64,000 nucleotides of DNA from Bacilli bacterium (GTDB lineage: Bacteria > Bacillota_I > Bacilli_A > RF39 > UBA660), in contig JAGAYJ010000008.1 in assembly GCA_017940575.1 (NCBI GenBank), positions 350-64,349 on the forward strand, written 5' to 3'. Below are positions 38-19,293 of this stretch, piece after piece. Position numbers and translations under genes: made by a program. The first letter of the stretch is position 1, and every line of letters begins with the position of its first letter. The notes under the pieces are model-generated. The model was given only the letters and a program-made list of their open reading frames with translations. It ran no database searches and had not been told where the DNA came from.

Positions 38-59
38 TAATGTTTCACGTGAAACATTA
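38..59. promoter_or_regulatory. parS site 1 (16-bp core TGTTTCACGTGAAACA at 41-56; 22-bp perfect palindrome)
   Basis: Read directly: TAATGTTTCACGTGAAACATTA. Exact match to the Firmicute parS consensus TGTTNCACGTGAAACA. Overlaps the stop codon of the 57-350 ORF. Confidence 0.85.
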
Positions 60-350
60 GTTTAATATTTTAATTTTATCATTTGATATTTCATTATTTT
101 TTAACATTAAAGTTATATTTTTAAGCTGATTAAAAACATTACCTAATTTAATATTATTCTCCATAAAATCTTTTGTATAATCTATTCCTAGTTTATTAAA
201 TTGTTTATTTATTAAAACTTTATTCATTTCTTGATAACAATCTTTCAATTCATAAAGATATTTAGCTTTTTTTATAATATTAAAAGGTAAAATACGTTTC
301 CAATCAGGATTAAACTCTGTCATATATTCTTCAAAAGTTTTTTTATCCAT
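57..350 (-). CDS. hypothetical small protein (97 aa from MDKKTF...)
   Basis: ORF track 57..365. I prefer the ATG at 350, preceded by AAAGGGGAAATC (SD). No recognisable family. Bracketed by parS sites. Confidence 0.55.
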   Translation of the reverse strand: MDKKTFEEYMTEFNPDWKRILPFNIIKKAKYLYELKDCYQEMNKVLINKQFNKLGIDYTKDFMENNIKLGNVFNQLKNITLMLKNNEISNDKIKILN

Positions 351-6203: not shown

Positions 6204-6647
6204 TTATTTTCTTCTTTTTCTTACTATTGAATCAAGCATTGTAGATCTATAAATTTGATTTTCTAGTGAACCATATGAAATATCTAAATTAAGCTCATAT
6301 CCATTTTTAAATTTTACTCTAGATGATTTATCATTTTTCATATATTTTTCTATTTGATTTAAGAATATCCAACAACATTTTTCATCTCTTGGAGTAAGTG
6401 TTGGAAATGTTATTATATTTTGTGTCTCTTCTACTAAAATAGGAGTTTTATAAGAAATTCCAAGCATACTTATAGTTCCAATATGTCTTCCCTCATAAGA
6501 TGAACCAAAATATCTACAACTTTTATCCACAATATCAAATGAATTTTGATTAATAAAAAAATCATCATCCTCTTCTATTATGTGACTAACTCTATCTGTT
6601 ATAGGTATGATAGCCATAGTTTTACTGTTAATTTCATAGTTTTCCAT
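6204..6647 (-). CDS. comK: ComK-family competence transcription factor homologue (short, 147 aa)
   Basis: Collinear with B. subtilis ComK from memory: YEIN..TMAIIP, IVDKSCRYFGSSYEGR, KTPILVE...FPTLTPR, ISYGSLENQIYRS. Lacks the C-terminal ~45 aa of the Bacillus protein. Confidence 0.75.
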   Translation of the reverse strand: MENYEINSKTMAIIPITDRVSHIIEEDDDFFINQNSFDIVDKSCRYFGSSYEGRHIGTISMLGISYKTPILVEETQNIITFPTLTPRDEKCCWIFLNQIEKYMKNDKSSRVKFKNGYELNLDISYGSLENQIYRSTMLDSIVRKRRK

Positions 6648-11881: not shown

Positions 11882-11922
11882 ATATAATCTCATGATTATA
11901 TTTTTTCGTAAGGAGAATGTTT

Positions 11923-12417
11923 ATGAGTATATTATGGAGAGTAGAGTATTATAAAATTGTAAAAGAAATACTAGAACATCCTGAATTCATAAAAAGAAAA
12001 AATTTTAAACATCATTCTAATATATCTGTATATGATCATTGTCTAGCTGTATCTAAGCTTTCATATAAACTTGCTCGTCGTATGCATTTAGACTATAAAA
12101 GTGCAGCAATTGGGGGATTACTTCATGATTTTTATACTAAGCCTTGGCAAGAATGTACAGAAAAGAAGAAATTATTAGAACAACATGGCTTTACTCATGC
12201 AAAAGATGCATTAATGAATGCTCATAAATATTTTCCAAATCTAATGAATGAAAAAATTGATGATATAATACTTAGACATATGTTTCCACTTAATAAAATT
12301 CCTCCTAAATATAAAGAGGGATGGATTGTTACAACAGTAGATAAATATATATCATTAGAAGTATTTAAAAATCCTAAGTTTTTACCAAAACTAGTAGGAC
12401 TAGGAAAGAAGGGATAA
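11923..12417 (+). CDS. HD-domain phosphohydrolase family protein
   Basis: ORF track 11917..12417. The second ATG (11923) is better spaced from SD AGGAGA. Motifs HCLAVS and GGLLHDF (HD motif). Confidence 0.75.
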   Translation: MSILWRVEYYKIVKEILEHPEFIKRKNFKHHSNISVYDHCLAVSKLSYKLARRMHLDYKSAAIGGLLHDFYTKPWQECTEKKKLLEQHGFTHAKDALMNAHKYFPNLMNEKIDDIILRHMFPLNKIPPKYKEGWIVTTVDKYISLEVFKNPKFLPKLVGLGKKG

Positions 12418-13832: not shown

Positions 13833-15728
13833 ATGAAATATGAAATTATTGTTGTTGGTGGAGGACATGCTGGATGTGAAGCATCGCTTGCGGCATCTCG
13901 TATAGGACATAAAACTTTACTTGTTACAGGTAATATTAAAAATATAGGAGATATGCCATGTAACCCATCTATTGGTGGTTCTGCTAAAGGTATTGTAGTT
14001 AGAGAAATTGATGCCTTAGGTGGTGAAATGGGTAAGAATGCAGATAAGTCTCAGATACAAATGAAAATGCTAAATTATAAAAAGGGACCTGCAATTCGTG
14101 CCTTAAGAGCGCAAGCTGATAAAGTGACTTATCCACAGAATATGTGGAAAACTATTCAAAATCAGGCTAATTTAGACGTAAAAGAGGGCCTTGTAGAGGA
14201 CTTAATTGTTGAAAACAATAAAATAATGGGTGTTATCTTAGAAGATGGTGAAAAAATATTTGCTGATGCTGTAATACTTACAACAGGAACTTACCTAAAA
14301 GCTGATATATTAGTAGGAGATACTAGAAGAAGAGAAGGACCACATGGAGAGAGACCATCTAATCATTTAAGTGATAATCTAAGAAGATTAGGATTTGAAA
14401 TTAAAAGACTTAAGACAGGTACTCCACAAAGAATTGATGTAAATACAATTGATTTTTCAAAAACAAGAGAAGAAAAAGGATCAGATATTCCTTTAACATT
14501 CTCATTTGATGATAAACCAAATTATAAAATGGAAGATCAAATACCATGTCATTTAATTTATACAACAGAGGAAACTCATAAAATAATAAGAGATAACTTA
14601 ACTAAATCAAGTATGTATGGTGGACTAGATGATATAGAGGGAATTGGACCTAGATATTGTCCATCAATAGAAGATAAAGTAGTTAGATTTGCTGATAAAG
14701 AAAGACATCAATTATTCTTAGAACCTGAAAGTATTATAAAAGATAATGAAACATATGGTAATACTATATACCTTCAAGGTTTCTCAACAAGTATGCCTTA
14801 TGATATACAAGAGCGTATGGTACATAGTCTACCAGGTTTAGAAAATGCTAAAATATTAAAGTATGCATATGCAATAGAGTATGATTCAATTAATCCACTA
14901 CAACTTAAACAATCTTTAGAAACTAAAAAAGTAGAAGGTTTATTTACAGCAGGACAAATAAATGGTACAAGTGGATATGAAGAAGCTGCATGTCAAGGAT
15001 TAATGGCGGGTATTAATGCCGCTTTAAAATTAGAAGGAAAAGAACCATTAATCTTAAAGAGAAATGAAGCATATATTGGTGTTTTAATAGATGACTTAGT
15101 AACTAAAGGAATAAGAGATCCTTATAGATTACTTACATCACGTGCTGAATATAGATTACTTCTTAGAAGTGATAATGCTGATCTTAGACTTAGAGAACAT
15201 GGATATGAAGTAGGTTTAATTAGTGAAGAAAGACACAATAATCTATTAAATAAGAAGAAAAATATTAATGAATTAATGGAATATTTAAAAAGTGTCAAAA
15301 TTACACCAAATAAAGAAAACCTTGAAAAATTAAGCAAAATTGATACTACACCTCTAAAAGATGGTATAAGTGCACTTGATTTTATAAGAAGACCAGAAGT
15401 AACTATAAAAGAGTTAAAAGAACTTGGCTTAATTAATATCGATTATAGTGATGATATTATTGAACAAGTAGAGATAAATGTTAAATATGAAGGTTATATT
15501 AATAAAGAAATCAGAGAAGCATCTAAAATGTTAAAATTAGAAGATAAAAAAATACCAGATGATATTGATTATGATGATGTATCTAATATTGCAAGTGAAG
15601 CAAGACAAAAATTAAAAGAAGTAAAACCAACATCAATCGGTCAAGCAATAAGAATTAGTGGAGTAAATCCTGCCGATATATCAATTTTAATGGTTTACTT
15701 AAGAAAGTATTATAATGAATCAAAATAG
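13833..15728 (+). CDS. mnmG: tRNA uridine 5-carboxymethylaminomethyl modification enzyme MnmG
   Basis: 631 aa. Motifs VVGGGHAGCEA, GPRYCPSIEDK, FTAGQINGTSGYEEAA. Confidence 0.96.
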   Translation: MKYEIIVVGGGHAGCEASLAASRIGHKTLLVTGNIKNIGDMPCNPSIGGSAKGIVVREIDALGGEMGKNADKSQIQMKMLNYKKGPAIRALRAQADKVTYPQNMWKTIQNQANLDVKEGLVEDLIVENNKIMGVILEDGEKIFADAVILTTGTYLKADILVGDTRRREGPHGERPSNHLSDNLRRLGFEIKRLKTGTPQRIDVNTIDFSKTREEKGSDIPLTFSFDDKPNYKMEDQIPCHLIYTTEETHKIIRDNLTKSSMYGGLDDIEGIGPRYCPSIEDKVVRFADKERHQLFLEPESIIKDNETYGNTIYLQGFSTSMPYDIQERMVHSLPGLENAKILKYAYAIEYDSINPLQLKQSLETKKVEGLFTAGQINGTSGYEEAACQGLMAGINAALKLEGKEPLILKRNEAYIGVLIDDLVTKGIRDPYRLLTSRAEYRLLLRSDNADLRLREHGYEVGLISEERHNNLLNKKKNINELMEYLKSVKITPNKENLEKLSKIDTTPLKDGISALDFIRRPEVTIKELKELGLINIDYSDDIIEQVEINVKYEGYINKEIREASKMLKLEDKKIPDDIDYDDVSNIASEARQKLKEVKPTSIGQAIRISGVNPADISILMVYLRKYYNESK

Positions 15729-16416
15729 ATTTATTGAAGAATTAAATAAATTAGGAATTAATTTATCTGATACTCAACTTAATCAATTAGATAAATATTA
15801 TTGCTTACTTGTTGAATATAACAAAGTAATGAACTTAACTGGTATAACAGAGCATGATGAAGTTTATTTAAAACACTTCTATGATTCTATTACTATAATA
15901 AAAACAATTGATTTAAAAAGTATTAATACACTATGTGATATAGGAACAGGTGCTGGATTTCCAGGATTGGTTTTAAAAATAGTGTTTCCAAACCTTGCAG
16001 TAACACTCCTAGACTCTTTAAATAAAAGAATTAATTTCTTAAATACAGTTATAAAGGAGTTAAATCTTCAAAATATTGAAGCAATACATGCTAGAGCAGA
16101 AGAATATGCTACTCTTAATAGAAATAAATTTGATGTAACTACATCAAGAGCAGTAGCTCATCTTTCTAACTTGCTTGAATATGCTATTCCAATGACTAAA
16201 GAAAATGGATATTTTATAGCTTTAAAAGGAAACCTAGATGAAGAGTTAAATGAAGCATCTAATGCTATAAAACTTTTAAATGTAGAATTAACTGATAAAC
16301 AAGAATTTAAACTTCCAATAGAAGATAGTAATAGAACAATTGTTAAATTTAAAAAAAATAAAGATAATAAAAAATATCCAAGAAAGTATAGCGAAATAAA
16401 AAAAAATAGGTTATAA
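15715..16416 (+). CDS. rsmG: 16S rRNA m7G527 methyltransferase RsmG
   Basis: 233 aa. Motifs DIGTGAGFPGLVLKI and SRAVA. Overlaps the mnmG end. Confidence 0.93.
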   Translation: MNQNRFIEELNKLGINLSDTQLNQLDKYYCLLVEYNKVMNLTGITEHDEVYLKHFYDSITIIKTIDLKSINTLCDIGTGAGFPGLVLKIVFPNLAVTLLDSLNKRINFLNTVIKELNLQNIEAIHARAEEYATLNRNKFDVTTSRAVAHLSNLLEYAIPMTKENGYFIALKGNLDEELNEASNAIKLLNVELTDKQEFKLPIEDSNRTIVKFKKNKDNKKYPRKYSEIKKNRL

Positions 16417-16428: not shown

Positions 16429-16504
16429 ATTATATTTCCCAAAATTAATTGCATTATTTCCCAAAGTATTGTATTATAATTATAAGAGTAGGAAGAGGGA
16501 TAAT

Positions 16505-18157
16505 ATGGAAGAGGAAAGAAAAGTTGTTACACTAAATATTGATGATATTTTGCCCAATCGTTTTCAACCAAGAATTCAATTTAATGAACAAGCAATAAAT
16601 GAACTTGCTGAATCAATTAAATTACATGGTGTAATACAACCAATTGTTGTAAGAAAAATAAGTGACAAATATGAAATTATAGCTGGTGAGAGAAGATATA
16701 AAGCAAGTATTATGGCAGGTAAAACTACAATTCCTGCAATTGTAACATCATTAGATGACAGAAATAGTGCTGAAGTTGCTTTAATTGAAAATGTACAAAG
16801 ACAAGATTTAACTCCAATAGAAGAAGCTATATCTTATAAAAAAATACTTGATATGGGATATATTAATCAAGAAGAGTTAGGATCTAAATTAGGTAAAAAA
16901 CAATCTACTATTGCCAATAAACTTAGACTTCTTAATCTATCAGATGAAGTACAAGAAGCTTTAATGGAAAATAAAATATCAGAAAGACATGCAAGATCGT
17001 TATTAAAATTAAACGAAAATGATCAATTATTAATGTTAAATAGAATTATAAGTGAAAGATTAACTGTTAGAAAAACAGATGAAGAAATAGCAAAATTACT
17101 AGAAAACAACGGTGGTAGTCAAAAAGAAATAAATGATGAAAAGGGAGAACAAAAAATGAACAATGATATCTTAAGAGATTTTAACATACCTACAGAACCT
17201 ATTATTAACGATACTGTAGAAAATAAAACAGAACCAATGGTTGAACAACCAATACAACCTATTATTGATGATAACAAAGAAGAAATTAATCCAGTTACTA
17301 ATGTTGAAAAAGAAGAAACAATTAATCCTGGATTTATGGATATTGATAAAATTGAACAAATGGCTGAAGATATTAATAAACCTGAAGTTAAAATGCCTAC
17401 AGAAGATTTATTAAAACCAGCAGAACCAGTAGCACCACAACCAAGTTATGATGAAGTAGCTCAACCAACACATGAAGAACCTATACAACAAAGTATGCCT
17501 CAAGGTGGTAAATTCTTTAATATGTTTAATTTTAGTGAACCAGAAAAAGATGAATCATTTATAGAAGATATTGAAGAAGGTCAAGTTAATATGGATTTTG
17601 GTGATAATTTAAATAATCCAAGTCCTTTTAATCCAATAATTGAACCTGTTCAACCAGAACCAATTGTTGAAGATATTAAAGAAGAAAAATCTACAGAACC
17701 TGTAAATGATCCATTTTCATTTGGTGAATCTGTTTCATTTGATAATGAAATTAAACCTGTAGAACCAATATCATATGAGGAAAAAGAAGAAGAATTAGTA
17801 AATCCAACTCCAGCACCTACTGATGTAAACCCATTTAATGAGACTGTTCAACCTTTCTCACTTACTGACGATGGTTTTAGTACAACTAATACTCAACCTC
17901 AAACTAGTTATGAACAACCTGCATTTGAACGTCCATATATGATGAATAGTGATGTTAACTTTGATGAAGAAGGAGAAATAGAAGTAAAACTTCCAAATTA
18001 TAATGAACCAGAAATTAAAGTTGATATGAAAACAGTTATTAATACTATTAGAGAATGTGCAGCTCAAATTGAAAAATATGGTTATAAAGTAGATACTGAT
18101 GAAATTGATTTAGCTGATACATATGAAGTAACATTTAGAATTAATAAAAATGATTAA
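16505..18157 (+). CDS. noc: ParB-family protein, Noc-like, with a ~300-aa acidic low-complexity insertion
   Basis: ORF track 16469..18157. The ATG at 16505 follows SD GGAAGAGGGA. Motifs ILPNRFQPR, IIAGERRYKAS (CTP-binding GERR), QSTIANKLRLLNL and ISERHARSLL match Noc better than Spo0J. C-terminus INTIRE...YEVTFRINK resembles the Noc C-terminal domain. Confidence 0.8.
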   Translation: MEEERKVVTLNIDDILPNRFQPRIQFNEQAINELAESIKLHGVIQPIVVRKISDKYEIIAGERRYKASIMAGKTTIPAIVTSLDDRNSAEVALIENVQRQDLTPIEEAISYKKILDMGYINQEELGSKLGKKQSTIANKLRLLNLSDEVQEALMENKISERHARSLLKLNENDQLLMLNRIISERLTVRKTDEEIAKLLENNGGSQKEINDEKGEQKMNNDILRDFNIPTEPIINDTVENKTEPMVEQPIQPIIDDNKEEINPVTNVEKEETINPGFMDIDKIEQMAEDINKPEVKMPTEDLLKPAEPVAPQPSYDEVAQPTHEEPIQQSMPQGGKFFNMFNFSEPEKDESFIEDIEEGQVNMDFGDNLNNPSPFNPIIEPVQPEPIVEDIKEEKSTEPVNDPFSFGESVSFDNEIKPVEPISYEEKEEELVNPTPAPTDVNPFNETVQPFSLTDDGFSTTNTQPQTSYEQPAFERPYMMNSDVNFDEEGEIEVKLPNYNEPEIKVDMKTVINTIRECAAQIEKYGYKVDTDEIDLADTYEVTFRINKND

Positions 18158-18222: not shown

Positions 18223-19293
18223 ATGAATAATAAAGATTTTCAAAATGAATTTAGTTTAGAAAATAAAGAATATCATCATAATACACTTTTATTTTTAATT
18301 TTAGAAGTGTTTATATCAGCTATATTAAGTTTAATTATAGTAGCACAAATACCAAACATATCACTTAAATCCATTTTTCTAATATATATTACAGTTCTTT
18401 TGTTTATAGTACTAATTACACTAAAAAATCGTCTTCTGATTTTTTTTAAAGACTTTAGTGTATTATTTTTAAAAAAACTTACATATAAGCAAACAAAAAA
18501 TTTTGTAAGAAAAGAAAAACTTGAAAAAATAGATTTTAAAAATGATCATAATTATTATCGTGATATTATAAAAAAATATAGTCCAGCGGAACTATTATAT
18601 ATTGATGAATTTCGAACAAATGAAAATTATAAAATATATTTGATGACACTTTTAAATCTTGAATTAAAAAAATATATTTTAATAAAAGAAAATCTTATTA
18701 ATGTAATTAATTCTGATGATAGTAATTTAAAATTATCAGAAAAATATGTTATGTCCTGTATAAAAAATGGAAAATTACATGTAAATACAAAAGAAGATAA
18801 AATATATGAGTATGTAAAAGAAGAGGCAATTAAAGATAATTTAATTAAAGAAGAAGATAAAAATTTAAAACCTTTGATTTCGAACAAGAAATTTTTAATT
18901 TTAAATCTTTTCTTACTATTAAATACTTTATTTACGCCAATTTGGTTTGTATATATTCAGAATAAAATATTATTAAGTATATTACTAATTATTTTTATTA
19001 TTTCTTTCCTTTTACTTGTTGTATTTTTTCCTTTATCTTTATATTATTATGAAAAGTATTATGAATTGAATCATAAATTAAATAATTATGTTAGAACAGA
19101 AGAAGGAAGTCGTATAAATTATAAGTTAAATGGTTTAAAAAATTATATAAAAGATTTTAGTAATTTAGATGAAAAAGATAAAGAAAATATTAATCTTTGG
19201 GAGGATTATTTAATTTATTCAATTATGTTTAATATAAATAATAATGTTTTAAATGAAATGGTTGGTTTAATTGAAATAAGAGCAAATGTATAA
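18223..19293 (+). CDS. multi-pass membrane protein, unknown function (C-terminal part reminiscent of DUF2207)
   Basis: 356 aa with several hydrophobic segments. SD AAAGGAGAA upstream. No confident family assignment. Confidence 0.65.
   Translation: MNNKDFQNEFSLENKEYHHNTLLFLILEVFISAILSLIIVAQIPNISLKSIFLIYITVLLFIVLITLKNRLLIFFKDFSVLFLKKLTYKQTKNFVRKEKLEKIDFKNDHNYYRDIIKKYSPAELLYIDEFRTNENYKIYLMTLLNLELKKYILIKENLINVINSDDSNLKLSEKYVMSCIKNGKLHVNTKEDKIYEYVKEEAIKDNLIKEEDKNLKPLISNKKFLILNLFLLLNTLFTPIWFVYIQNKILLSILLIIFIISFLLLVVFFPLSLYYYEKYYELNHKLNNYVRTEEGSRINYKLNGLKNYIKDFSNLDEKDKENINLWEDYLIYSIMFNINNNVLNEMVGLIEIRANV

Follow-up and report, generated by a model that had tools for sequence, protein, structure and literature searches.

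A 64,000-nucleotide stretch of contig JAGAYJ010000008.1 from a Bacilli bacterium, referred to here as the window, carries a gene of the ParB family that begins at position 16505, directly downstream of rsmG (15715-16416). This locus raises the question of whether the encoded protein belongs with Noc or with Spo0J, and how it could act with an acidic disordered linker between its DNA-binding and C-terminal domains and with no membrane helix at its N-terminus. We have analyzed the gene, its product and its relatives computationally. The protein, called the Noc variant in the following, is a Noc orthologue and not a Spo0J. Its identity as Noc is of an already known kind, and the loss of the defining N-terminal element and the acidic tether are new. 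With slightly more belief than doubt, we favor the reading that the effector function of the Noc variant lies in the tether, that a Phe-Phe motif within the tether (FF motif) is a weak membrane anchor, and that a separate ParB serves the parS sites of the same genome. The gene has the following parts, in window positions, where CTP is cytidine triphosphate and pLDDT is the predicted local distance difference test score.

16505-18157, + strand: Noc-variant gene, 550 residues and stop codon
16491-16500, + strand: Shine-Dalgarno sequence AGGAAGAGGG, read from the sequence, 4 nt 5' of the ATG at 16505
16505-17113, + strand: folded ParB/Noc core (residues 1-203), a CTP-binding N-terminal domain followed by a Noc-type helix-turn-helix (HTH), from Pfam, pLDDT and PDB matches
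16553-16573, + strand: CTP box I, PNRFQPR, part of the core
16685-16705, + strand: CTP box II, GERRYKA, part of the core
16784-16801, + strand: CTP box III, IENVQR, part of the core
17114-18016, + strand: acidic, Pro/Asn-rich disordered linker (residues 204-504), from composition and pLDDT
18017-18157, + strand: Noc-type C-terminal dimerization domain (residues 505-550) and stop codon, from pLDDT, a hidden Markov model (HMM) and tblastn

The open reading frame (ORF) spans 16469-18157 (+), and the ATG at 16505 is its supported start. The sole in-frame alternative is a TTG at 16469, which adds 12 codons reading MYYNYKSRKRDN. Since nothing else stands in frame upstream, an N-terminal amphipathic helix is impossible. 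In the Pfam scan of the 550-residue protein, ParB_N matched residues 6-98 (E = 1.6e-32) and HTH_ParB residues 100-198, and no further Pfam domain was found. CTP boxes I-III are invariant among 80 aligned members of the family. An AlphaFold2 model built from an 80-sequence alignment showed two confident modules, residues 5-203 (pLDDT 82-95) and 505-548 (about 90), the latter consisting of a helix (508-524) and two strands. Across most of the linker the pLDDT was below 50, and only three tiny helices were modeled there (residues 220-225, 280-286 and 338-341). The 301 residues of the linker contain 24% D+E, 12% P and 9% N and carry a net charge of -53, compared with about -3 for each of the folded parts. 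An earlier description of this DNA, made from the sequence alone and called here the preliminary description, had noted an acidic disordered insertion of about 300 residues, the missing N-terminal membrane helix, and the motifs PNRFQPR, QSTIANKLRLLNL, ISERHARSLL and INTIRE...YEVTFRINK; the insertion and the missing helix agree with our analysis, and all of the motifs are present in the translation.

Several comparisons place the protein with Noc. Its best NCBIfam model is nucleoid_noc (TIGR04285), with 288.7 bits, and when the linker was deleted, the protein aligned with the whole model (303.9 bits, model positions 1-255 of 255). As calibration of this model, B. subtilis Noc scored 373.3 bits and B. 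subtilis Spo0J 256.6 bits, with the alignment of Spo0J ending at model position 214 and leaving its C-terminal domain unmatched. The nucleoid_noc score exceeded the parB_part score by 127 for the Noc variant, by 154 for B. subtilis Noc and by 30 for Spo0J. In the PDB sequence search, the Noc entries 7NG0/7NFU matched with 204 bits versus 171 and 158 bits for Spo0J, and in the fold search with the AlphaFold2 model, the Noc structures 7NFU, 7OL9 and 7NG0 ranked first. The DNA-binding domain of the model superposed on the Noc-NBS complex 6Y93 (NBS, Noc-binding site) with a root-mean-square deviation of 1.3-1.9 Å and a template modeling score of 0.88-0.92, and on the ParB-parS complex 6S6H with a deviation of 6-8 Å. 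By tblastn, the C-terminal domain of B. subtilis Noc matched that of a relative (L004), and the match of B. subtilis Spo0J to the Noc variant was limited to residues 20-218, which is the core. The gene order mnmG-rsmG-gene-...-uvrB is kept in about 20 relatives. The best HMM, the best PDB matches, the Noc-type C-terminal domain and the rsmG neighbor thus all bear out the proposal of the preliminary description that the protein is Noc-like and not Spo0J-like.

On the one hand, the Noc variant resembles the Noc proteins of B. subtilis, Geobacillus thermoleovorans and S. aureus (TIGR04285; 7NFU, 7NG0, 7OL9, 6Y93) in CTP boxes I-III, in an HTH with the NBS-reading Gln and Arg and a permissive Lys, in the type of its C-terminal domain, in the position of its gene right after rsmG (gidB), and in a genome that carries the consensus NBS. 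On the other hand, it differs from them in the missing N-terminal module of about 26 residues (membrane helix α1, helix α2 and loop), in Asn instead of Lys at position 184 (numbered after Caulobacter ParB, as set out below), and in the linker: Noc has about 20 basic residues between the DNA-binding and C-terminal domains, whereas the family of the Noc variant has an acidic disordered tether of 200-600 residues with conserved motifs. With chromosomal ParB/Spo0J (6SDK, 1VZ0, 4UMK, 6T1F) it has in common the N-terminal domain, the HTH fold and the CTP boxes, and also the setting, in that the same genome has a parS cluster near oriC. Unlike Spo0J, it has Gln and not Arg at position 173 and Arg and not Gly at position 201; it has neither the N-terminal basic peptide that stimulates ParA (its N-terminus is MEEERK) nor an adjacent parA/soj; and its C-terminal domain is of the different, Noc type. 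The origin of the linker in a fusion with the 3' end of spo0J or in soj remnants was considered and rejected, given the Noc-type C-terminal domain and the lack of such remnants by tblastn.

Regarding the DNA target, Jalal et al. 2020 (PMC7383237) showed that four positions switch ParB to Noc specificity. These are Caulobacter ParB positions 173, 179, 184 and 201, which correspond to the following codons of the window.

16901-16903, + strand: specificity residue Q133 (position 173)
16919-16921, + strand: specificity residue K139 (position 179)
16934-16936, + strand: specificity residue N144 (position 184)
16985-16987, + strand: specificity residue R161 (position 201)

Q133, K139 and R161 are of the Noc type and N144 differs, as the preliminary description had recognized, and all four are invariant in 119/119 family members. 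According to PMC7383237, Q173 recognizes adenine 1 of NBS and R201 recognizes cytosine 6, and NBS can be read with a single Lys at either 179 or 184. Therefore, Asn at the third position (184) leaves the assignment to Noc unweakened. The same study gives Arg173 together with a small residue (G/S/T/C) at 201 as the parS-reading residues, and in its mutational scanning the parS-specific variants have an invariable R173. The Noc variant lacks this pair, having Gln133 (173) and Arg161 (201), both invariant. Because the exact combination QKNR was not found in the available supplementary text of PMC7383237, the NBS specificity assigned here rests on the general rules of that study. Judged by these residues, the Noc variant is predicted to read NBS and not parS.

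A matching site exists in the genome. The preliminary description held that the DNA has parS sites rather than NBS; outside the window this did not hold, as a perfect NBS, GTATTTCCCGGGAAATAT (consensus ATTTCCCGGGAAAT), lies on the same contig, some 7 kb to the left of where the window starts (L025:19637-19650). This NBS is within rsmI (TP_methylase) at codon 190, in the motif I-S-R-E-I-S-K, and an identical NBS occurs at the identical rsmI codon in three relatives with about 80% GyrA identity (L028:12764, L029:18873, L030:18921). There, I-S-R-E is encoded as ATT TCC CGG GAA, although TCC accounts for 11/633 Ser codons (1.7%) and CGG for 0/351 Arg codons in 18 large window ORFs, and the synonymous positions flanking the NBS vary among the four genomes. 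The hexamer CCCGGG occurs 5 times in 534 kb of DNA of the lineage, and 4 of these occurrences are the rsmI NBS. Considering the rare codons and the variable flanks, selection acts on the DNA itself, which implies a reader of NBS. An NBS-like sequence, AAATTTCCTAGGAAATAT (2 mismatches), about 140 nt 5' of the gene in many relatives was discounted, as it lies inside rsmG and encodes a conserved KKFPRKY.

The loss of the N-terminal module and the presence of the linker extend across a large family. In a homologue search of 5.8 billion proteins, 118 full-length homologue clusters (513-600 residues, down to 47% identity) carry the insertion. In a profile search of 1.84 billion representatives at 50% identity, of which the best 150 were taken, 150/150 are 406-834 residues long and aligned from residue 1. 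Accordingly, the linker architecture is common to more than 150 clusters at 50% identity, and it was seen in hundreds of independent assemblies (ENA, NCBI, JGI, Logan). Among species-representative genomes, the carriers are uncultured gut and rumen metagenome-assembled genomes (MAGs) of 23-30% GC, labeled 'Bacilli bacterium', 'Tenericutes bacterium' or Candidatus Faecisoma merdavium; NCBI places Ca. Faecisoma in Mycoplasmatota incertae sedis. PNRFQPR starts at residue 40 in B. subtilis Noc, with 39 residues before it, versus 16 in the Noc variant. It starts at residue 15-22 in 145/147 representatives in which it was found and at residues 26 and 34 in the other two, where the extensions are non-amphipathic, and a Noc-type N-terminal extension was found in 0/150 representatives. 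The N-terminal module of Noc, defined in PMC8429893 and PMC4331003 as α1, α2 and the α2-β1 loop, is thus absent from the Noc variant. Our literature searches found no paper on a Noc/ParB with a long disordered linker or on Noc in Mollicutes-like lineages.

Comparison of 119 sequences showed little conservation in the linker apart from a few islands, of which the main ones in the window are as follows.

17156-17206, + strand: linker motif 1, MNNDILRDFNIPTEPII (residues 218-234), consensus MNxDI[LF]K[ED]FNIPTEPI, predicted helix 220-225
17321-17374, + strand: linker motif 2, INPGFMDIDKIEQMAEDI (residues 273-290), consensus NPGFMD[IV]DKIxxxAxDI, amphipathic helix 280-286
17504-17533, + strand: linker motif 3 (FF motif), GGKFFNMFNF (residues 334-343), followed by SEPEKDE, consensus GG[KR]FF[NT]MF[NA]F, candidate membrane-targeting sequence
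17558-17602, + strand: linker motif 4, FIEDIEEGQVNMDFG (residues 352-366), consensus [FY]VxD[IV]ExxxVNMDF
17834-17878, + strand: linker motif 5, FNETVQPFSLTDDGF (residues 444-458), weakly predicted hairpin, with PFSLxDDxF at residues 450-458

The FF motif has an invariant G335, F337 and F338, position 336 is K or R in 119/119 sequences, and M340 and F341 are conserved in more than 97%. In the broader set, [KR]FF occurs in the linker of 124/150 representatives in the form [PTG]-G-[KR]-F-F-[NTSD]-Φ-Φ, followed by 5-6 mostly acidic residues, and PGF[MVIL][DN] of motif 2 occurs in 94/150. N362 and F365 of motif 4 are invariant, and its E357 and D364 reach at least 90% conservation. The same level is reached in motif 5 by F444, L453, D455 and F458, and AlphaFold2 places strands at 452-459. 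A further island, FDxxGEIEV, lies at residues 486-494, and P232 and P275 of the linker are also invariant. The closest species-representative genome (L001) illustrates this pattern. Compared with the window, its MnmG is 99%, its RsmG 94% and its UvrB 94% identical; within the Noc variant, the core is 95% and the C-terminal domain 89% identical, and the linker has numerous indels and no more than 55% identity. The linker motifs of L001 are intact despite this low identity. In more distant members, the proteins reach 834 residues and the linkers are built of tandem aromatic-acidic-Pro units, such as MPEFNFDVP (about 12 times in L016), ...DIPSFDVPAM... (L011), AMPSFETPVE (P0303) and VPQFNPF. Such linkers occur in the following members, as well as in proteins P0278 and P0303.

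L011:10001-12427: member with repeat-built linker
L016:9989-11875: member with repeat-built linker
L017:7244-8842: member with repeat-built linker

That the linker in the window arose by expansion of tandem repeats was considered and rejected, as TRF gave nothing meaningful there.

The FF motif resembles known membrane anchors in its physical properties. PQGGKFFNMFN has a hydrophobic moment of 0.42 and a mean hydrophobicity of 0.13, compared with 0.43/0.09 for the helix of B. subtilis Noc and 0.40/0.13 for the MinD anchor. The pattern of a basic residue, Phe-Phe, hydrophobic residues and an acidic run is common to the FF motif and the N-terminus of Noc (MKHSFSRFFGLG), and we take the C-terminus of MinD and the N-terminus of SepF, MSMKNKLKNFFSMEDEE (..KLKNFFSMEDEE), to resemble it as well. 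These known anchors are terminal, whereas the FF motif lies inside the protein, with about 130 residues between it and the DNA-binding domain and about 160 between it and the C-terminal domain, and, unlike them, it is surrounded by highly acidic disordered sequence. The preliminary description had pointed to an internal motif resembling the Noc anchor; it corresponds to GGKFFNMFNF at residues 334-343 (346-355 in the numbering of the ORF track), and the invariant G335, F337 and F338 and the hydrophobic moment typical of membrane-targeting sequences uphold this comparison. The FF motif is therefore plausibly, as far as its sequence tells, a relocated membrane anchor.

In the known Noc, the autoinhibited state has α1 and α2 packed against the N-terminal domain, and CTP binding is thought to release them (Jalal et al., PMC8429893). 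Adams et al. 2015 (PMC4331003) showed that NocNΔ10 is non-functional, that an unrelated amphipathic helix restores the function of Noc, and that the Noc helix binds weakly, for which clustering compensates. During the action of the Noc variant, the protein would nucleate at NBS, close into a CTP-dependent sliding clamp and spread like B. subtilis Noc, which we infer with high confidence. With moderate confidence, we consider that the tether has taken over the effector function, and that G-[KR]-F-F-N-Φ-Φ with its acidic run may act as a weak in-plane membrane anchor. Such an anchor would be effective only once many clamps gather around NBS, by avidity. The other Phe-centered motifs of the tether may add membrane or partner binding, or may regulate the anchor.

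Several points weigh against this reading, in its anchor, in its assignment to Noc and in its separate ParB. The Noc variant stays below the curated nucleoid_noc cut-off of 315 bits, in its native form (288.7) as well as with the linker deleted (303.9). AlphaFold2 gives the FF motif only a 4-residue helix at low confidence. Conservation as strict as that of the motif is seen more often where proteins are bound than in a generic amphipathic helix, and repulsion is expected between anionic membranes and a tether with a net charge of -53. The CTP switch described for Noc acts by releasing α1/α2 (PMC8429893), and both are missing here, so that regulation, if any, must differ. About 82 kb contain a single perfect NBS, and the 64-kb window contains none, even when up to 3 mismatches were allowed. 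Finally, no ParA/ParB was found in the 82 kb around oriC (contig positions 10342-91913 of 95062).

The alternative that survives best also places the effector in the tether. According to it, the tether is a multivalent platform for protein recruitment on an NBS-binding CTP clamp, with no direct membrane contact, and its Phe-centered motifs, G[KR]FFNΦΦ among them, bind proteins of division or segregation, for example FtsA, SepF, FtsZ, EzrA or MinD-type partners, thereby sequestering them or anchoring the clamp indirectly. Occlusion would in that case depend on the capture of partners and not on a helix that binds lipid. Considering the very strict identities in the motifs (G335, F337, F338, N362, F365, P232 and P275), the five or six separate conserved islands amid a fast-evolving linker, and the acidity that argues against direct lipid binding, this alternative deserves attention. 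The tandem aromatic-acidic-Pro units of relatives suggest multivalent binding, and their DIP-x-F units presumably resemble the C-terminal peptide of FtsZ (B. subtilis ...LDIPTFLR). However, the protein of the window has no repeats, the Phe of the FtsZ peptide has no counterpart in its IPTE motif, and the physical properties of the FF motif equal those of known membrane anchors. The neighboring genes are also not conserved partners. A DUF2207_C membrane protein (18223-19293) and a 225-residue protein were considered as downstream partners and rejected, as they stand inconsistently next to the gene in relatives; the DUF2207 protein is missing in L001 and others. We regard recruitment with no membrane contact as possible but doubtful. 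The anchor and the capture of partners are compatible with each other.

A combination of the two can be put in a wider form, namely that nucleoid occlusion has been rewired across the clade. The contact would then have moved from the CTP-gated helix to the motifs of the tether, an FF anchor and multivalent Phe-acidic-Pro motifs, through which DNA-bound clamps would reach the membrane, or capture FtsZ anchors such as FtsA or SepF, at a distance and with no need of the autoinhibitory switch described for Noc. In its strongest form, the Noc variant would also be the sole ParB-family protein of these reduced genomes. This wider proposal is tentative, and we would sooner expect it to fail than to hold.

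The parS sites are the remaining part of the question. The preliminary description had counted four perfect parS in the window, and all four are there; they stand as context and are not predicted targets of the Noc variant.

41-56, strand not assigned: perfect parS TGTTTCACGTGAAACA
408-423, strand not assigned: perfect parS TGTTTCACGTGAAACA
507-522, strand not assigned: perfect parS TGTTTCACGTGAAACA
545-560, strand not assigned: perfect parS TGTTTCACGTGAAACA

By chance, 0.11 perfect parS are expected in the window, versus 4 observed. Two more lie just left of it (L025 13303 and 13343), giving six perfect parS in a span of about 890 bp that lies between gyrA and tadA (L025:12473-13358), five of which share the extended form AATGTTTCACGTGAAACATT. 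The three relatives with the rsmI NBS (L028-L030) keep 3-4 parS after gyrA. The parS sites bracket a 97-residue ORF with no Pfam match (window 57-350, - strand) and an apparent degenerate second copy of it; this ORF is absent in relatives that keep 3-4 parS after gyrA. Between the parS cluster and tadA/dnaX, at L025:13400-13470, lies a sequence that by appearance resembles a small signal recognition particle RNA (ggtcaggattggaagatagcagcc...), in a layout that we take to match the scr-dnaX arrangement of B. subtilis.

Could the Noc variant itself serve these sites? As the sole ParB-family protein, it would load at the six parS, perhaps at NBS too, and would be a segregation protein that resembles Noc. 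This alternative is in accordance with the dense cluster of perfect parS kept in the lineage, with Asn instead of the typical Noc Lys at 184, and with the missing soj and spo0J: the preliminary description had noted that neither soj nor spo0J follows the gene, by tblastn the window has no soj and no second parB, no soj/spo0J was found in the canonical position or, in 22 relatives, in the ±10 kb around the gene, and no ParA/ParB was found in the gyrA regions of L028-L030, in addition to the 82 kb around oriC mentioned above. However, the invariant Gln stands where parS-specific variants invariably have Arg173, Arg201 is an NBS-reading residue (PMC7383237), and the C-terminal domain is of the Noc type. 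Moreover, NBS is under selection at the DNA level in the same genomes, which implies a dedicated reader. Since parS and NBS are both conserved and both the exact B. subtilis consensus, two distinct readers are implied, the Noc variant and a canonical ParB. A precedent is presumably S. aureus, with noc after rsmG, parB elsewhere and no known soj. We consider it improbable that the Noc variant is the sole ParB-family protein, and the possibility hinted at in the preliminary description, that it serves parS, is not supported, given the invariant Gln133 and the conserved NBS. We infer that a separate canonical ParB, encoded away from oriC and with no soj beside it, reads the parS cluster. The puzzle of the parS sites is thus for the most part explained by an NBS that lies outside the window and a ParB that is presumably encoded elsewhere.

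Returning to the Noc variant as a reader of NBS, its own upstream region contains half-sites.

16433-16466, + strand: promoter region in which TATTTCCCAAA (half-site tATTTCCC) is directly repeated, at 16433 and 16455, on either side of a TTGCAT -35-like hexamer

The half-site TATTTCCC occurs only twice in 64 kb on both strands, and both occurrences are in this region. The pair flanking a TTGCAT/TTGAAA hexamer also precedes the gene in L001-L019; in three of these genomes (L004, L005 and L008) one copy forms an almost complete NBS palindrome (ATTTCCCAGGAAAT, ATTTCCCGGAAAAT or ATTTCCTGGAAAAT). From this arrangement, the pair may serve as an operator for autoregulation. The TTGCAT...TATAAT-like promoter went unflagged in the promoter scan, and consensus matches were fewer than in shuffles; the TTGCAT...TATAAT-like element is therefore a putative promoter on the strength of its conservation across species. 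A related case is KorB of plasmid RK2 (8QA8, 8QA9), which, with other CTP clamps of the ParB family, has regions outside the core that give a function other than segregation, as in the Noc variant. The half-sites in the promoter of the Noc variant suggest a further likeness, possible self-repression. KorB is distant (50 bits), and it differs in having the partner KorA and another operator.

In L001 (L001:2487-4133), the Noc-variant gene has an in-frame TAA at codon 106 (TPI*EAIS), which is either an error of the MAG consensus or a pseudogene in the L001 strain. The explanation that the insertion is an assembly or frameshift artefact or belongs to a decaying pseudogene, with a linker that has no function, could draw on this stop and on the fast, indel-tolerant evolution of the linker, but it is effectively refuted, with next to no probability left, by the uninterrupted architecture recurring across hundreds of independent assemblies, in the 118 homologue clusters as well as in the best 150 representatives, by the invariant motifs within the linker, by the Noc-type C-terminal domain in frame behind it in all members, and by the strong constraint on the core and the C-terminal domain (95% and 89% identity with L001).

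Two observations concern other genes of the oriC region. A ComK-family gene (6204-6647, - strand; Pfam ComK E = 1e-44) lies between dnaN and recF; its position is kept in L025 and L028-L030, and it is unusual for a competence regulator in a genome-reduced lineage. A small HD-domain protein (11917-12417, + strand) is inserted between jag/khpB and mnmE, also in L029 and L030, in a string that is otherwise canonical (rnpA-yidC-jag-mnmE-mnmG-rsmG).

In summary, the family of the Noc variant has kept the CTP domain, the reading of NBS and the dimerization domain, and the helix released by CTP is deleted. Its carriers are abundant, uncultured, genome-reduced gut Bacilli. The NBS in rsmI, written in otherwise unused codons, provides a clean case of selection on a protein-binding site within a coding sequence. 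If the motifs of the tether bind divisome proteins, Noc would here act by direct protein capture, which to our knowledge has long been sought and never found. If the tether binds the membrane, the family would be a natural experiment on whether the position of the helix and autoinhibition are essential, and it would show how far from the membrane DNA can sit while division stays blocked.

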